Origin: Cyanobacteria bacterium UBA6984 | GTDB lineage: Bacteria > Cyanobacteriota > Vampirovibrionia > Gastranaerophilales > Gastranaerophilaceae | NCBI GenBank assembly: GCA_002450015.1 | Contig: DJYG01000037.1 | Coordinates: 3,149-67,148, forward strand | Direction of reading: 5' to 3' | DNA length: 64,000 nucleotides | Shown: positions 49,221 to 55,689 of the stretch, piece after piece | How the letters are laid out: the number at the start of each line of letters is the position of its first letter | Numbering within the stretch: the stretch's first letter is position 1 | The notes under the pieces: generated by a model | What the model was told of the DNA's origin: nothing | The model's database searches: none | What the model saw: only the letters and a program-made list of their open reading frames with translations | Position numbers and translations under genes: made by a program

Positions 49221-49409
49221 TATAAAAACTTTAAATTAGTATGTTTTAGTTATAATGTAACAATTTTGTTACATTGTGTGATGGTTGATTTTAATGGGTT
49301 TAAACCTCTTATATAACATGGTTTTAGCATAACATGGCAATTATTTTTAATAAAAATACTTTAAATAGATACGAGAGATATATTTGTATTTTAAGAGGAT
49401 TTTTAATTA

Positions 49410-50387
49410 ATGACAGCAGATTTTGCATCTAATATGAGTATGATGTTTGCACTAAACAATTTTACAAACGGTGCATATAAATATCAATATCCGACAATAA
49501 ACGGTGTTTCAAATGCATATATGAATCCAGAGATAATGAGTTCTATCCCATCAATATTTCAGCAAGCTGTTGTTCTTGCTAATGCAGGAAACATGGGTAA
49601 TTATGCTAATTTAACAAATTCTGATGTATTGAATATGTCTTTATCTAAACCTCTATGGATGCAGGCAGTTTCAAATCAAACATATACTCCGCAAGTTGAT
49701 TTTACAAGATTATACACATACAATCCGTTTGCTGTAAATAATGGTTCTACAACTACAGTAGGAAGTTCGCAAGCAGGTAGCGTAACAAATCTGTTTAATC
49801 AGCCAACAGTAAAAAATCAAGAACTTGCAAATGAATTGAATAAATTTGGTATTTCTTCAACAGGTGATGAAGAAAAAGATAAAAAAGCTTTAGAAAAAGC
49901 AAAAGCCGGTGAAACAAAAGTAAAAAAAGAAGCAGCAAAAATAGCAGAAGACTTGTATGATGCAATGAAGGGTGCAGGTACAAAGAACGATAAACTTCAA
50001 GCTGCAATTAATAAAATTAACAAAAATAATGTAATAGAAGTAATGGAAGCTTGGAATTCAAACTTCGCAGATGCTATGGGTGGAGATACCTTGTTGGAAG
50101 CGGTTCAAGGTGAACATCATACAGGATGGTTCGGCAACACTCAAGAAAAACAGGAAAATGCAATATTAAAAGCTTTAACAGATAGGGCAGAAGATGAAAA
50201 ACGCGGGCTTGGTTTGGATACTGAAGCTGCATCTGCAAGAGCAAAAGTAAATTCTGAACATAGTGCAATGTTTACATCAGATGATACTGTAAAAACTTCA
50301 ATAGAAAATCTTGCAAAACAAATTAAAGATAAAGAAAATTCGATTATAGCCGAAAAATATCAAAAAGCAGCGCAAAATAACAAATAG
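49410..50387 (+). CDS. hypothetical protein P1: unique N/Q/S-rich N-terminus + annexin-like C-terminal module
   Basis: 325 aa with no signal peptide. C-terminal 139 aa are about 90% identical to P2. AEDLYDAMKGAGTKNDKLQAAINKI resembles an annexin repeat. Confidence 0.6.
   Translation: MTADFASNMSMMFALNNFTNGAYKYQYPTINGVSNAYMNPEIMSSIPSIFQQAVVLANAGNMGNYANLTNSDVLNMSLSKPLWMQAVSNQTYTPQVDFTRLYTYNPFAVNNGSTTTVGSSQAGSVTNLFNQPTVKNQELANELNKFGISSTGDEEKDKKALEKAKAGETKVKKEAAKIAEDLYDAMKGAGTKNDKLQAAINKINKNNVIEVMEAWNSNFADAMGGDTLLEAVQGEHHTGWFGNTQEKQENAILKALTDRAEDEKRGLGLDTEAASARAKVNSEHSAMFTSDDTVKTSIENLAKQIKDKENSIIAEKYQKAAQNNK
49920..50336 (+). repeat. 417-bp direct repeat copy A (3' part of P1)
   Basis: Roughly 85-90% nucleotide identity by eye to 51262..51678. 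Encodes a 139-aa module. Confidence 0.85.
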
Positions 50388-50418
50388 AAAATAGTAATAA
50401 TATTTATAAGGAGAAAAA

Positions 50419-51717
50419 ATGAGCGTTCAATTATCACAATTGGCTTCCAGTTTAGGGTTTAAAGGTAAATTGCCAAAAGGAGCAACAGATATTACGAAAA
50501 ATCCTGATGGATCGTACAAAATAACTGTTAACGGTCAAGACAAAAATTATAATGCAGATGGCAGTGTATTTAGCGCTCCTGCAAAAGACAATGCTTCTGC
50601 CGCAGAGAATAATAACAGATCTCAAAGTACTCCTGCTGCTGACAATAATAGCAAACCTCAAAACACACCGGTTGCCGATAATAGCAATAGTGGTAATGGT
50701 AACGGTAATGCAGATAATAACGGAAATTCAGGCAAAGCAGACAATAATTCTTCAATTTTTGGTAACCGTACATCAGTAACAGGAAGTTTTAATATAGATC
50801 CTGCAAAATTGGCTGCAACATCAATGAATTTGAATGGAATAGTAAATATTGGTGCTGAAGTACCATTTGGCTTAGGTGGTATGATGAGTCAAGGTGCAAT
50901 GCAGCAAAATATGCAAGATTTTATGAATTCTGTCAATTTTAATTTTGATTTTAAAAATTTAGATTTATCTTCACCACAATTTGCAATACCTGGTTTTTAT
51001 CCTTCAGGCACAACCCAAACACCAAGCGGAGGTACTTCGGTAACTGTTGATGGAGCTACAAAAACCGTTGCGGAACTGGCTAAAGATGGAGGTTATGAAG
51101 AAACTGCTACTGATGGAGTCTATAAAAAGGGTGATAAATATTATAAGTATGATGTAAATAAAAAAGAATTTGTAGAAGTTACAGCTGCTGAAGCTAAAAA
51201 AGCAAAAGAAGCTGATGAAGCAAAAGCAAATGAAGAAAAAGATTTAAAAGAAAAAGAAAAAGTTAAAAAAGAAGCAGCAAAAATAGCAGAAGATTTGTAC
51301 GATGCAATGAAAGGTGCAGGAACAAAGAACGATAAACTTCAAGCAGCAATTGATAAAATTAATAAAGATAATGTAATAGAAGTAATGGATGCTTGGGATT
51401 CAAACTTTGCCGATGCTATGGATGGTGAAAGTTTGCTGGAAGCAATACAAGGTGAGCATCATACAGGATGGTTTGGAAACACCCAAGAAAAACAAGAGAA
51501 TGCAATTTTAAAAGCATTAACAGACAGGGCTGAAGATGAAAAACGCGGACTTGGTTTAGATACCGAAGCAGCCGCTGCAAGAGCAAAAGTAAATTCCGAA
51601 CATAGCGCAATGTTTACATCAGATGATACTGTAAGAACTTCAATAGAAAATCTTGCAAAAAAAATTAGAGAAAAAGAAGGTGGAACAACTACGCCTTCAG
51701 CACCAACAACAACGTAA
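50419..51717 (+). CDS. hypothetical protein P2: PFGLGG/FNFDF module + KYYKYD module + annexin-like C-terminal module
   Basis: 432 aa with a strong GGAG Shine-Dalgarno. N-terminal two-thirds are homologous to P3 and the C-terminus to P1. Confidence 0.6.
   Translation: MSVQLSQLASSLGFKGKLPKGATDITKNPDGSYKITVNGQDKNYNADGSVFSAPAKDNASAAENNNRSQSTPAADNNSKPQNTPVADNSNSGNGNGNADNNGNSGKADNNSSIFGNRTSVTGSFNIDPAKLAATSMNLNGIVNIGAEVPFGLGGMMSQGAMQQNMQDFMNSVNFNFDFKNLDLSSPQFAIPGFYPSGTTQTPSGGTSVTVDGATKTVAELAKDGGYEETATDGVYKKGDKYYKYDVNKKEFVEVTAAEAKKAKEADEAKANEEKDLKEKEKVKKEAAKIAEDLYDAMKGAGTKNDKLQAAIDKINKDNVIEVMDAWDSNFADAMDGESLLEAIQGEHHTGWFGNTQEKQENAILKALTDRAEDEKRGLGLDTEAAAARAKVNSEHSAMFTSDDTVRTSIENLAKKIREKEGGTTTPSAPTTT
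51262..51678 (+). repeat. 417-bp direct repeat copy B (3' part of P2)
   Basis: See copy A. 13 of 139 residues differ, and many of the changes are N/G to D. Confidence 0.85.
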
Positions 51718-51739
51718 TACTATAATAAAATAATATATT

Positions 51740-51773
51740 AAAGTACGGTTTGTTTTTAAATAAACCGTACTTT
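51740..51773. terminator. bidirectional terminator between P2 and the small Cys gene
   Basis: AAAGTACGGTTT-(10-nt loop)-AAACCGTACTTT. Confidence 0.7.
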
Positions 51774-51785
51774 GTATTGCAAAAT

Positions 51786-52004
51786 TTAATGAGTTCTTCT
51801 TGTTGTCGTATTTTCGAATATATTACGGGCATTGCTCATTGCAAGTGTTTTTAATGAGCACATTCCATAGTTTCTGTCAACAACACCAAGACTGGCTAAT
51901 CTGTTTAATAATAATTCGTTTAAATCTTCAGGATTGATAAATAATGCACAAGTTTTGTCACATATATCATTTTTAAACGGACATTTTCTAGAATTTTCAT
52001 CCAT
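51786..52004 (-). CDS. small four-cysteine protein of unknown function (paralog-like of 18302..18484)
   Basis: Start taken at the internal ATG (MDENSRKCPF...), with GGAG about 10 nt upstream. Shared pattern CP..., C..xCA(L/W)(F/Y), CS(I/L)xxLAxxNA. Confidence 0.45.
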   Translation of the reverse strand: MDENSRKCPFKNDICDKTCALFINPEDLNELLLNRLASLGVVDRNYGMCSLKTLAMSNARNIFENTTTRRTH

Positions 52005-52219
52005 ATAAAGTACTCTCCAAATTCTCAAATTGATGTACAATGTAGCTACATCATAGTATAATTTAAAAATAAAGTACAAATGTAAACAATTGTTAAAACA
52101 TGAACTAAAACCCTGAAAATACATGCAATTTCAGGAGAGAAAATGTTTTTACATGAGTGTAGGCGTATAGGAAAAATACGTGTGAAGGAAATGTACTTAA
52201 ATGTACAACGGAGGTGCTT

Positions 52220-54274
52220 ATGTATCCAGAAGCAAAAATTAATGGCGGAGGCACAAGTTCAGCAGATTGGACAGCAGGTTTGCCGGATGCCCTAAAAAAT
52301 AAAAAGCCTGAAGGTGCAAATGGCTTTACAAAAGTTGGTGATATATATATATTTACCAAAAATGGCGTAGCCATTGATGATAAGACTGGTTACAAAGCTA
52401 ATGGTGAGGCAACTAACATTTTTGACCAAGCTGCAAAACCTGATGATGCGTCAAAGGCGAAAGGTTCAGATGGTGCTGCGGGTAATAAATCAGGCAATAA
52501 AGCCGGTAATGGAGCTGGAAACGGTTCTTTAAGTACATTTGGCTTTGGATTTACCGGTACAGGTACAGATTTAAGCAATTCATGGATGAACATGGGTGGC
52601 GGATTTGAAATTGATTCAAATAAAATGATGAAATCAGCAGGTTTGATGGGCTTTATATCTGCTTTAGGTGGTATGATACCATTCGGCTTGGGTGGTCTGT
52701 TATCTCAAGGTGCATTACAGGCATCTATGGCTAGTTTCATGAATGCTGTAAAATTTAATTTTGATTTTTCAAATTTGAATTTGTCAGGTGATAATACAAG
52801 AACTGATGATTCAGAAGGCGCAAGTGATTCTGGGGACGCCGGTAGCGTTGATACATCAAAAGTTCCTGATGGATACAAAAAAACGAATGTAGATGGTGTA
52901 TTTGAAAAAGACGGAAAATACTATAAATATGATGATAATAAAAAATTAGTTGAATGCAAACAAGACGGTACAGCATTATCAACATCTGCTGCTCCTGCTG
53001 ATGATTCAGAAGGTGCAGGTGCAGGTTCTGCTGCAGGTGGCTCAGGCTCAGGCTCAGGCTCAAGCTCAGGCTCAAGCTCAGGCTCTCGTGTTTCAGGTGG
53101 TTCAGGCTCATCTTCTGGTGCAGGTTCAACCGGTGCCGGTAGTGGTAAAAAAACTTCTGGCATGCAAGGATGGTACAACGCTGGAAAAGATAAGAATAAT
53201 AACATAAAAGGTTTGACAAAAGAAGCTTTAAGCGCTGCTGAAGCAAAAAAAGCGGGCAGTGCGGCAAATTTAGTTGTTGAAAAACTTGTAGCTTCAAAAA
53301 CAAACAATCAATGGACAGCTGAACAAAAAGAAAAGTTAAGAGCTGAAATAATAAAGAAAAACCCTAGCGTATTCAATAAAGATGGTTCGTTAAAGTCTAA
53401 CTTTGATGTTTCAAAATTGGATATTCCAACTTTTGATTGGATGGAAAAAAATATCGGTAAAGCAACAAAAATAAATAATAATAACAAGACTTCAGGTGCT
53501 GCTAAACAATCTCAATCAACCTCATTAAATCGTCCTGCTGCAGCAACGTCAGGTTACATAACTTCTCTTGCTGACTTAGGAACCAGAATGAAAGGCGGTA
53601 TAGATAAGTTTGCAGGTAAACAGTTTAGTAAAGATAACTTAGTGGCTTATTTAGATCAAAATGATCAAAAGACTGTTACTGATATTAAGAACAATGGTGA
53701 CACTATAAGTTTTAGTACTTTTGACCCTGCTAAAAAAGGTACTATGGGCGGTGGTAGAGGTGTTTCCTATACTGTTAAGTTTAATCAATCAGGGCAACCT
53801 GTTAGTATTAAATCAGGTGTTATACAATACGATATGACCTATGGTCAAAATGGTGTAAGAGCTACTGCTACAAAGCAAAATATTGGTACGTATGGAAACC
53901 ACAATACCGATTCTTGGACATATACTTCAAATGGTGCTATACGTTATCATAAAGTTACTAGTGGTAGAAATGGTTCAGGTGAAAAACTCTCAGGTGAAAC
54001 TTATAACGAGCCATATAAATCTGGTCAAGGTCAAACAAAAATAACATTACCTAGTTTTTCATCAGGAACTCAAGGTTACAATAATGGTAAAATAGTTCAA
54101 GGTGATGTAACGTGGTCTAAGAGTGGTAATAATATTGTTAAGACAAACAAGAAAACTGGTGTTACTGAAACCTATGATAAAAATGGTTATTTAATAAAGA
54201 AAGAAGATAGTAAATCAGGTTATACATATACTTATCGCAAGAATAATTATGATATAGCGTATGAAAAACCATAA
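52220..54274 (+). CDS. hypothetical protein P3: PFGLGG/FNFDF module + KYYKYD module + Gly/Ser linker + Y/T/G/N-rich (YD-like) C-terminal region
   Basis: ATG 52220 lies 6 nt after GGAGG (the track start is GTG 52214). Homology to P2 over the first ~250 aa, read by eye. Confidence 0.6.
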   Translation: MYPEAKINGGGTSSADWTAGLPDALKNKKPEGANGFTKVGDIYIFTKNGVAIDDKTGYKANGEATNIFDQAAKPDDASKAKGSDGAAGNKSGNKAGNGAGNGSLSTFGFGFTGTGTDLSNSWMNMGGGFEIDSNKMMKSAGLMGFISALGGMIPFGLGGLLSQGALQASMASFMNAVKFNFDFSNLNLSGDNTRTDDSEGASDSGDAGSVDTSKVPDGYKKTNVDGVFEKDGKYYKYDDNKKLVECKQDGTALSTSAAPADDSEGAGAGSAAGGSGSGSGSSSGSSSGSRVSGGSGSSSGAGSTGAGSGKKTSGMQGWYNAGKDKNNNIKGLTKEALSAAEAKKAGSAANLVVEKLVASKTNNQWTAEQKEKLRAEIIKKNPSVFNKDGSLKSNFDVSKLDIPTFDWMEKNIGKATKINNNNKTSGAAKQSQSTSLNRPAAATSGYITSLADLGTRMKGGIDKFAGKQFSKDNLVAYLDQNDQKTVTDIKNNGDTISFSTFDPAKKGTMGGGRGVSYTVKFNQSGQPVSIKSGVIQYDMTYGQNGVRATATKQNIGTYGNHNTDSWTYTSNGAIRYHKVTSGRNGSGEKLSGETYNEPYKSGQGQTKITLPSFSSGTQGYNNGKIVQGDVTWSKSGNNIVKTNKKTGVTETYDKNGYLIKKEDSKSGYTYTYRKNNYDIAYEKP
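53039..53086 (+). repeat. in-frame hexanucleotide simple-sequence repeat (GGCTCA/AGCTCA x8) encoding a Gly/Ser linker
   Basis: GGCTCA x4, AGCTCA, GGCTCA, AGCTCA, GGCTCT. Translates to GSGSGSGSSSGSSSGS inside P3. Confidence 0.9.
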
Positions 54275-54293
54275 AAATTTAATTAAACGTATA

Positions 54294-54334
54294 AAAACCT
54301 AAACTGACAAATATATTGAAGTTTAGGTTTTTTA
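54294..54334 (+). terminator. rho-independent terminator after P3
   Basis: AAAACCTAAAC-(16-nt loop)-GTTTAGGTTTT followed by a T-run. Confidence 0.65.
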
Positions 54335-54528
54335 TTATTATTTTATATAGAATTTTAAATATTTACAGTGCATTGAAAATGTGAGCTAGTTATATTTGGA
54401 AATGAAAATTTATGTCTTCTGTCAAATCCTTATCCTCTTGCTTATAAATATTCTTAGTAACTTAAATCTACGCTGCAAATGAAAGAAATCTGTGCTTAGT
54501 CAAATATGTGGTTTATTAGGACAAAGGA

Positions 54529-54557
54529 TTGACAAAGTGTGTCGTATGCGATACAAT
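54529..54557 (+). promoter_or_regulatory. near-consensus sigma-70-type promoter of higBA, positioned for a leaderless start
   Basis: TTGACA (54529..54534), 17-nt spacer, TACAAT (54552..54557). The GTG at 54564 lies 7 nt after the -10. Confidence 0.6.
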
Positions 54558-54563
54558 ATAAAT

Positions 54564-54896
54564 GTGGCTAAATATCAAATTAGTATATATGTTACTGAAA
54601 ATAACAAAGAACCGTTTAATATATGGTTTAATTCACTGGACAAATTTTTTCAAAAAAGAGTTTTGTCAAGACTAATTCGGATACAAAATGGTAATTTGGG
54701 AGATTATAAGCAATTAGATATTGATTTGTATGAATTGCGTTTAGATTTTGGTGGTGGATATAGAATTTATTACACTCTAAATAATAATGAATTGATTATT
54801 TTATTGACAGGAGGTGATAAATCATCACAAAATAAAGATATTCAAAAAGCTAAAGAGTATTTAGCAGTTTACAAAAATGGAGGCAAAGATGATTAA
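54564..54896 (+). CDS. higB: type II toxin, RelE/ParE superfamily (HigB-type addiction module killer)
   Basis: GDYKQLDIDLYELRLDFGGGYRIYYTLNNNELIILLTGGDKSSQNKDIQKAKEY. GTG 54564 was chosen because a consensus promoter occupies 54529..54557. Confidence 0.8.
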   Translation: MAKYQISIYVTENNKEPFNIWFNSLDKFFQKRVLSRLIRIQNGNLGDYKQLDIDLYELRLDFGGGYRIYYTLNNNELIILLTGGDKSSQNKDIQKAKEYLAVYKNGGKDD

Positions 54897-55185
54897 AAAT
54901 CTAGATATTGATAATTTTATAGAAAAAAATTTAAAAACAGAAGAAGATATTAAAGAATGGCTTACAATTACTCTTGATGATTATATTCAAGACAGTGATT
55001 TTGAATCTTTTTTTAAAGCTCTTGAATATGCTGTAAAAGCTAAAACTACTATTTCAAAAATTTCTAATAGTACAAAAATCTCTAGAAGCAACTTATATAA
55101 AATGTTTAAATCAGAACAGTCACCACAGTTTGAAACAGTTATGAAAGTGCTTAAAGAACTTGGATATACGCTAAAAGTTGCATAA
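54889..55185 (+). CDS. higA: HTH antitoxin (HigA-type addiction module antidote)
   Basis: KISNSTKISRSNLYKMFKSEQSPQFETVMKVLKELGYTLKV. ATGATTAA overlap with the toxin stop and GGAGG upstream. Confidence 0.8.
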   Translation: MIKNLDIDNFIEKNLKTEEDIKEWLTITLDDYIQDSDFESFFKALEYAVKAKTTISKISNSTKISRSNLYKMFKSEQSPQFETVMKVLKELGYTLKVA

Positions 55186-55206
55186 TTATATTTGAATATT
55201 TGAAAA

Positions 55207-55689
55207 TTAAATATCAGCAGTACAATGAGGACATTTTGATGCTTTTATATCAATAGTTGAAAAACATCTTGGACATTCCTTAGTTGTACATTCTTCAGTT
55301 TTTTCTTCACATTTTTTAGCTGCTAAATTTTGCAATTTGTTCATTCCTTTTACTAACAAAAATACGCAAAAAGCAACAATGATAAAGCTAATAATTGTAT
55401 TTATAAATAAACCATAATTAATTGTTACTGCACCTGCTGCTTGTGCTGCCTCTAATGATGGATATTTTACAATTTCACCTTCTGCGTTTGGTAATGTTAT
55501 GTATAAATTCGTAAAATCAACTTTTCCCATTAACCAGCCTAATGGAGGCATAAATACATCTTTTACCATTGAATCAATTACTTTTCCAAATGCAGCACCA
55601 ATAATGATACCAACAGCCATATCCATTACGTTGCCTCTCATTGCAAAAGTTTTAAATTCATTTAAACTGTTTTTTAACCAATCAAACAT
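55207..55689 (-). CDS. mscL: large-conductance mechanosensitive channel MscL with C-terminal CxxC...CxxC extension
   Basis: [36 protein letters not shown]-terminal [18 protein letters not shown]. Confidence 0.9.

Follow-up and report, generated by a model that had tools for sequence, protein, structure and literature searches.

A divergent single annexin repeat with a two-helix extension in a protein family of gut Melainabacteria

INTRODUCTION

Do two adjacent genes of a gut bacterium encode a true annexin repeat, and what would such a repeat do there? The question is raised by genes P1 and P2, located in a stretch of 64,000 nt from Cyanobacteria bacterium UBA6984, family Gastranaerophilaceae (contig DJYG01000037.1, positions 3,149 to 67,148; assembly GCA_002450015.1). 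This stretch is referred to below as the window; its source is a metagenome-assembled genome (MAG) that is 75.75% complete. P1 and P2 share a C-terminal module which the original prediction, made by eye from the sequence, took for a single annexin repeat. We show here that the core of this module is homologous to annexin repeats at the level of profile and fold. What emerges is a new form of a known domain: one annexin repeat to which two conserved helices are added, present in a large hidden family of one lineage of gut Melainabacteria.

Annexins of bacteria were surveyed by Kodavali, Dudkiewicz, Pikula and Pawlowski (Kodavali et al. 2014, PMC3894181), who listed about thirty homologues from seventeen species of Bacteroidetes/Chlorobi, Gemmatimonadetes, beta/delta-Proteobacteria and Actinobacteria, including a single-domain annexin of Cytophaga hutchinsonii. 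According to the survey, the GxGT motif is strongly conserved, short annexin genes of Flavobacteria stand next to each other in pairs, some members are fused with toxin-type domains, and the distribution is patchy; to explain the latter, homologues 'diverged beyond recognition' were invoked. The idea that bacterial annexins are usually single repeats fused to other domains is in line with the single-domain forms of this survey, but multi-domain forms are listed there as well. Our literature search found no paper linking annexins with Melainabacteria.

RESULTS

Similarity of the module to annexins

The two 78-residue peptides singled out in the original prediction are exact translations of positions 49944-50177 and 51286-51519 (both on the + strand), near the C-termini of P1 and P2. 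They differ at 8 of 78 residues; DNA identity over this stretch is 87.6%.

The Pfam model of annexins (PF00191) has a gathering cut-off of 25 bits. Scores of 13.6 bits for P1 and 15.9-16.0 bits for the excised modules were obtained (E 0.014-0.076), full-length P2 had no match, and the alignment of the window modules spanned only model positions 3-43 of 66. The expected annexin match was thus seen, but below the cut-off. No Pfam or NCBIfam family was found above threshold in P1.

Twenty-two homologues were collected and aligned; 17 conserved C-terminal modules of 145 amino acids (aa) made up the A2 profile. Nearly all phmmer matches in PDB were annexins, and the A2 profile found almost only annexins there, with whole-sequence E-values down to 8e-18. 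These E-values are inflated by the summing of matches over all repeats of a multi-repeat annexin; the best match of the profile to a single repeat was repeat 2 of annexin A8 (23 bits, independent E-value 6.7e-4). PF00191 itself was matched at E<=1 by 16 of the 17 A2 members (best E 2.9e-6). Members from two other loci (L015 and L029) scored 23-24 bits on this model, and two distant relatives, P0033 (26.8 bits) and P0051 (29.8 bits), lie above the Pfam cut-off. Among 99 divergent full-length representatives, a PF00191 match at E<=1e-3 was present in only six.

For comparison we used 37 classical annexin repeats taken from multi-repeat hits of the family profile; three of the source proteins were independently confirmed as Annexin (E 1e-42 to 1e-88). 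The family core was aligned by hhalign to these repeats with a probability of 98.8% and an E-value of 1.2e-16 over 60 columns. A second run gave an E-value of 9.3e-17 over 65 columns; the aligned region extends from helix A to the D/E turn. The ungapped alignment made by eye had caught the annexin match; its second half did not hold, as the C-D loop carries a five-residue insertion and the D/E turn one extra residue. A five-residue insertion in the C-D loop also exists in some classical repeats (e.g. P0060). Helix E of the family is longer than in classical repeats. The likeness to annexins goes beyond chance, but this is seen only when relatives are included; the single window sequences are sub-threshold.

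Predicted fold and helices F and G

AlphaFold2 predicted seven helices for the 145-aa module (predicted local distance difference test, pLDDT, 90.4; predicted TM-score, pTM, 0.87) and five helices for the 90-aa core alone (pLDDT 91.2). When the predicted structure of the core was compared with PDB, the top 50 Foldseek matches were all annexins or annexin A2 fusions (probability 1.0), with TMq 0.58-0.70 and a root mean square deviation (rmsd) of 1.8-3.4 A over 75-91 columns; the exceptions in rmsd were two chains of 4mdv (6.6-6.8 A). The whole 145-aa module also retrieved annexins only, but at a TM-score of ~0.45 and an rmsd of ~8 A. These poor values arose because the aligner spread the module over two repeats; hence the core-only model.

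With a family profile that matches annexins significantly and a predicted five-helix fold, the claim of an annexin repeat stands. Its extent needed correction: some 50-60 further conserved residues, which form two non-annexin helices, lie beyond the first estimate.

These two helices, F and G, are a family-specific extension and not annexin. No relation to annexin repeats was detected by hhalign (probability 0.7%), and on this ground a cryptic second annexin repeat was rejected. To describe conservation we used 126 representatives, one per 50%-identity cluster, each matching the whole module once. Helices F and G are conserved throughout this set (A92, G96, E111, W115 and D119). Neither P1 nor P2 contains the four- or eight-repeat core of annexins; there is one repeat in each.

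A side observation concerns the tail of the P1 module. Residues ~279-290, 'K-V-N-S-E-H-S-A-M/W-F-T-S' (window ~50244-50279), echo 'Q-x-E-H-H-T-G-W-F-G-N' at residues 233-243 (50106-50138). This 'EH..WF' echo amounted to 12 hhalign columns at 9% probability and is not significant.

Residues of the calcium site

In the type II Ca2+ site of annexins, backbone carbonyls of the (M/L)-K-G-x-G-T loop are combined with a bidentate acidic side chain of the D/E turn (PMC3894181). The loop match put forward in the original prediction is borne out: MKGAGT is present in both P1 and P2 and is invariant in 20 aligned relatives. So is the Glu at the position of E235 (P1) and E346 (P2), which hhalign aligned with the Glu of the annexin 'E-T-S-G'. 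Of the 126 representatives, 96 retain an intact GxG[T/S], 116 have Asp or Glu at the D/E-turn position and 92 combine the two features; G20, G22 and T23 are among the best-conserved columns. The annexin repeat of the module is acidic (net charge -6), as would be expected because a domain of this kind needs Ca2+ to bridge to anionic lipids.

Conservation of these residues supports a retained cation site, as far as sequence can tell. Calcium-dependent membrane binding by the module would then be a well-founded expectation.

Relationship between the P1 and P2 modules

Positions 49920-50336 of P1 and 51262-51678 of P2 have 89.4% DNA identity (373/417), the flanks fall to ~35-52%, and the boundaries are sharp. 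The module is followed by 12 residues in P1 and by 8 residues in P2. A maximum likelihood tree of 26 modules separated the first-gene and second-gene modules of most genomes into two clades; the P1 module of the window nested in the second-gene clade, as a sister to its own P2 (support 99/96). This tree position, together with the sharp boundaries of the 417-bp segment, indicates a putative lineage-specific gene conversion from P2 into P1. Another clade (L010-L014) groups by lineage and not by gene position, which suggests repeated homogenisation.

Distribution and architectures of the family

An exhaustive profile search of 1.84 billion representative proteins yielded 430 proteins at E<=1e-3 (98 at E<=1e-10). 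Most of the matches cover the full ~140 positions once; those with several matching stretches are classical annexins. The family comprises at least 126 clusters at 50% identity, and some members are less than 25% identical to each other. We sampled 301 genomes of the phylum, 123 from the GTDB family of the window and ~177 from other families. The module was found in 90 of the 123 genomes and in none of the ~177; several genera of the window's own family lacked it in the genomes sampled. In the genome of the window only two copies are present. The family has thus expanded in a single family of gut Melainabacteria (Gastranaerophilales-type) and is confined to it. The sole public name that we found for its members is 'hypothetical protein'. 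Eukaryotic contamination was considered as a source and rejected: the contigs are bacterial, the genes lie between rimO, flagellar genes and mscL, and the synteny is conserved.

Five records (L003, L005, L007, L008 and L014) with the same rimO-P1-P2 loci are titled Muribaculaceae, Alistipes senegalensis, Anaerovoracaceae or Eubacteriales; these are probably mislabelled or misbinned MAGs.

In 104 of the 126 representatives the module is C-terminal, with at most 30 residues after it, and no Pfam domain besides Annexin recurs in the 99 divergent full-length members. A few giants of 1,700-2,600 aa bear the module internally, along with LysM, FHA, an EF-hand-like segment and a zeta-toxin domain. 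One of them (L023, G096:C5; 2,611 aa) has LysM, the module at 656-726 and FHA. Another (L022, G201:C20), longer than 1,743 aa as its frame leaves the locus, has LysM and the zeta-toxin domain besides the module (residues 563-695), and its N-terminus is EF-hand-like; this segment fits a calcium theme, although the match is weak and below the cut-off. Protein P0123 (866 aa) combines an N-terminal LysM, three module-like stretches and a calpain-type protease. The giant carriers and P0123 look like effectors or polymorphic-toxin-like proteins.

Several members of 600-700 aa (P0061, P0087, P0095, P0107 and P0149) start with M-G-N-E/D-I/V-S/N. This start resembles the eukaryotic N-myristoylation motif that is used by some bacterial effectors inside host cells.

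Cellular location and gene context

A secreted, host- or envelope-interacting role had been proposed for the family. It received no direct support, as neither P1 nor P2 has a signal peptide or a transmembrane segment (maximum KD19 hydropathy ~1.1). Other members are likewise devoid of Sec-type N-termini.

About ten genomes have, in this order, genes for a response regulator and a histidine kinase, flgB, flgC, fliE, rimO and the P1-type, P2-type and P3-type genes; rimO and a gap of 190 nt stand between the flagellar genes and P1. The original prediction had described positions 49221-55200 as an accessory island, and the rimO-P1-P2-P3 order kept in these genomes weakens that view. A distant subfamily of 272-279 aa directly adjoins a gene of FlgE/F/G type, which itself follows a FliK-like gene (a weak, sub-threshold match); in one genome (G205) the gene of this subfamily is within ~6 kb of fliF, fliH and flhA. 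Adjacency to flagellar genes was seen in these two subfamilies only.

Five other genera showed no proximity of module and rod genes (e.g. 947 kb vs 1,630 kb in the single-contig genome G099). In four of these genera (L030, L031, L033, L034 and L035) the module gene is the last one in a tight cluster, in which two ~290-aa paralogues without a Pfam match are followed by lipB and the module protein, with a divergent TPR protein upstream. We considered lipB as a functional partner, but it has the look of one more housekeeping neighbour. All 123 genomes of the family contain FlhA, and so do module-free sister families, so the FlhA phylogenetic profile is uninformative. No flagellar domain (Flg_bb_rod, Flg_bbr_C, FlgE/F/G D1, FliK and similar) was detected in P1 or P2 at E<=10, such domains being confined to neighbouring genes, and the contractile sheath model Phage_sheath_1 (PF04984) had no match in the window's genome, at its 75.75% completeness.

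The same genome (G000) encodes two complete FlhA (FHIPEP) paralogues, 704 and 711 aa long (C52:2865-4850 and C7:1462-3435), and a partial third one; genomes across the family, and those of further non-photosynthetic families of the phylum, have two or three FlhA matches each. These numbers suggest two type III export gates, with either dual flagellar systems or one system of a different kind.

The locus

Coordinates of the features are collected in Table 1.

Table 1. Features of the P1-P2-P3 locus (positions in the window; aa, amino acids; ORF, open reading frame; HMM, hidden Markov model; MFE, minimum free energy)
Feature	Position	Strand	Residues and remarks
P1	49410..50387	+	ORF, 325 aa; C-terminal annexin-type module
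P1 conserved seven-helix module	49914..50348	+	Residues 169-313; HMM envelope, AlphaFold2
P1 annexin repeat proper	49926..50195	+	Residues 173-262; AlphaFold2, Foldseek, hhalign
P1 helices A-E			Residues ~174-186, 193-201, 208-218, 228-234, 242-261
P1 M186-K-G-A-G-T191	49965..49982	+	AB-loop motif, annexin type II Ca2+ site
P1 Glu235	50112..50114	+	Candidate bidentate Ca2+ ligand, D/E turn
P1 family-specific helices F and G	50217..50345	+	Residues ~270-285 and 291-312
P2	50419..51717	+	ORF, 432 aa; same C-terminal module as P1
P2 seven-helix module	51256..51690	+	Residues 280-424; HMM envelope
P2 annexin repeat	~51268..51537	+	From P1/P2 residue offset 111
P2 MKGAGT (M297-T302)	51307..51324	+	From residue offset 111
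P2 Glu346	51454..51456	+	From residue offset 111
P2 helices F/G	~51559..51687	+	From residue offset 111
Strong hairpin	51741..51773	.	Between convergent P2 and small Cys-protein gene; MFE -18.9 kcal/mol
Small Cys-containing ORF	51786..52124	-	Convergent with P2; no NCBIfam, Pfam or PHROG match
P3	52214..54274	+	686 aa; conserved downstream neighbour of P2

The N-terminal parts of P1 and P2 are of low complexity, rich in N, S, A, T and G (N, S, A and T in P1, where a Lys/Glu-rich linker precedes the module), and have no match in Pfam, NCBIfam or PHROGs. The N-terminal region of P2 is shared with P3, as BLASTP of the two proteins revealed: a low-complexity tract, a Gly-rich hydrophobic 'PFGLGG' segment and the motifs 'FNFDF' and 'YYKYD'. 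P3 has this P2-type N-terminal architecture without the annexin module. It had no match in Pfam, PHROG or NCBIfam, and a PDB search returned noise only; in nearly all related loci the module genes are followed by a gene resembling P3. The Gly-rich hydrophobic stretch of P3 has a KD19 of 1.61, borderline for membrane insertion.

A consensus scan for promoters and terminators found sites no more numerous than in shuffled sequence; the intergenic regions were read and folded instead for this reason. AAGAGGA lies ~13 nt upstream of the P1 ATG. The gap between P1 and P2 is 31 nt long, unstructured and has AAGGAG, a ribosome-binding site, 6-7 nt upstream of the P2 ATG. The hairpin after P2 has a z-score of -5.96, and none of 200 shuffles was equally stable; it is likely a terminator closing the P1-P2 unit. 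Given the short unstructured gap with AAGGAG and the strong hairpin, P1-P2 looks like one bicistronic unit.

The small Cys-containing ORF has counterparts of 64-75% identity in five related loci, and in some genomes it stands between the P1-type and P2-type genes. Downstream, the P1-P2-P3 block is flanked by a gene of the Gp49/HigB-like toxin family (PF05973; 54492-54896, +) and by mscL (55207-55689, -).

DISCUSSION

The probable explanation, in our judgement, is that P1 and P2 carry a true divergent single annexin repeat with two added helices, acting as a Ca2+-switched peripheral membrane anchor. The acidic repeat would bind Ca2+ and so bridge to anionic phospholipid head groups, making the module a reversible, calcium-switched anchor for the variable N-terminal part. 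Helices F and G probably cover the hydrophobic face that the neighbouring repeat covers in four-repeat annexins. As no export signal was found, P1 and P2 would by default act on the membrane of their own cell, at its cytoplasmic face, as eukaryotic annexins do; export of the module to another membrane by a non-classical route is possible.

Several observations weigh against this explanation. P1 and P2 themselves stay below the Pfam gathering score, and a few designed helical-repeat proteins also match the A2 profile (E 1e-8 to 7e-7), so that part of the profile score comes from helix composition. The loop Thr and the acidic residue are 44 positions apart, owing to the C-D loop insertion, vs the canonical 39, and a Lys replaces the usual Asp/Glu after GxGT in both P1 and P2; the geometry of the Ca site could differ for these reasons. 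Gene neighbourhoods vary by subfamily and point to no membrane process. Finally, since a single repeat offers one Ca site, membrane affinity may be weak unless the protein forms oligomers.

The sub-threshold Pfam scores of the window sequences, the six PF00191 matches among 99 divergent relatives and the scores of designed helical repeats could be taken to mean that the likeness to annexins is chance or convergence in a helical protein rich in Ala, Lys and Glu. We consider this very improbable in view of the hhalign result (98.8%, E 1e-16), fold matches that are exclusively annexins or annexin fusions at an rmsd of ~2-3 A, the agreement of motifs at both elements of the Ca site and the gradation of the family into sequences that pass the Pfam cut-off. 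If the fold is annexin-like, the module might still serve in docking to proteins or to the cell envelope (e.g. in association with peptidoglycan), the loop being kept for structure. Large carriers do join the module with peptidoglycan-binding LysM domains, five of the 17 members have weak sub-threshold matches to YkyA (a lipoprotein that putatively binds the cell wall), the acidic ligand has a non-canonical spacing, and N39, W47 and the A87-L88-A92-G96 block, all outside the Ca site, are conserved too. Yet LysM is limited to a few giant members, the YkyA matches are far below threshold, and both Ca-site elements are among the most conserved polar positions despite identities below 25%, which is hard to explain by structure. 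Such docking is in our view rather unlikely.

Two further alternatives concern the place where P1 and P2 act, and we would give each of them a small chance. They may be associated with the flagellum, either leaving the cell via its type III export apparatus or binding to the basal body; the module would then tether them to a membrane, for instance a membranous sheath or, at the motor, the inner membrane. The flgB-flgC-fliE-rimO-P1-P2 synteny in about ten genomes, the independent 272-279-aa subfamily beside a FlgE/F/G-type gene, low-complexity N-termini without a Sec signal and the confinement of the module to a family with FlhA in each of its 123 sampled genomes are consistent with this. Against it, the housekeeping gene rimO and the 190-nt gap intervene and P1-P2 looks like a unit of its own; the module gene is far from the rod cluster in five other genera, following lipB in four of those; the module is absent from sister families that do have FlhA and from several genera of its own family; P1 and P2 have no flagellar Pfam domain, and the FliK-like match is sub-threshold. 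Alternatively, the module could be a membrane-targeting accessory domain of exported effector- or toxin-like proteins directed at membranes of competitors or the host, P1 and P2 being small members or helpers. Single annexin domains in polymorphic toxins delivered by Photorhabdus virulence cassettes (PVC) were proposed to serve as accessory membrane-targeting domains, with an enzymatic toxin domain always after them (Zhang et al. 2012, PMC3482391), and fusions with toxin domains are among the surveyed annexins (PMC3894181). The giants with LysM, FHA, the EF-hand-like segment and zeta toxin, the carrier with LysM and a calpain-type protease, the Gly-rich hydrophobic segment of P2 and P3 and the gut habitat fit this alternative; the extreme C-terminal position of the module in P1, P2 and 104 of 126 representatives is the opposite of the published toxin architecture, this 76%-complete genome yielded no contractile-sheath gene, no immunity-like gene was identified, and P1, P2 and P3 have no recognised toxin domain.

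The anchor reading places the family beside three known groups. With the surveyed bacterial annexins (PMC3894181) it shares the repeat and its GxGT loop, single-repeat forms, neighbouring gene pairs, toxin-type fusions in some members and a lineage-restricted distribution. It differs from them in its host lineage, as the survey has no Cyanobacteria or Melainabacteria. Further differences are that it is mostly below Pfam detection (6/99), that its two-helix extension creates a seven-helix unit, that it has the five-residue C-D insertion and, in P1 and P2, the Lys after GxGT, and that its expansion is far greater. From PVC/eCIS toxins (eCIS, extracellular contractile injection systems), which also contain a single annexin repeat in large multidomain proteins, and whose layout the giant carriers (LysM, module, zeta toxin) resemble, it differs in that the module ends P1, P2 and most members; a toxin domain stands behind it only in giants such as L022, and no PVC metallopeptidase or sheath gene was seen here.

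Eukaryotic annexins (A5, A8, A4 and A6; PF00191) have in common with the module the five-helix repeat, the M-K-G-x-G-T AB loop, the acidic D/E-turn residue and the acidic surface. In contrast to their four repeats, P1 and P2 have one, with helices F and G in place of the partner repeat, and are distinguished by the wider spacing from loop to acid and the longer helix E. Annexins A7 and A11 have a comparable layout, their annexin core lying behind a long N-terminal part of low complexity; this is an analogy only.

One broader scenario would unite these strands: a lineage-specific, Ca-switched docking domain on many signal-less proteins, from small ones of P1/P2 type to toxin-like giants, with the two flagellar-adjacent subfamilies exported via the flagellar type III apparatus to an outside membrane. 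We offer it as a speculation with a low chance of being right; if true, the membrane acted on could for example belong to the host epithelium, to a neighbouring cell or to a flagellar sheath.

Annexins are a thoroughly studied membrane-binding family of eukaryotes, and the present family is a candidate case of the homologues too diverged to be recognised that the one survey devoted to bacterial annexins had suggested for other lineages: in a single Melainabacteria family of the human and animal gut it was found in roughly three of every four genomes sampled, and it is almost invisible to Pfam. Because the single repeat is probably stabilised by two extra helices, it forms a natural minimal annexin unit, convenient for testing calcium and lipid binding by one repeat. 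For the uncultured gut lineage itself, the finding gives a testable function to 'hypothetical proteins' and flags the giant toxin-like carriers of the module.

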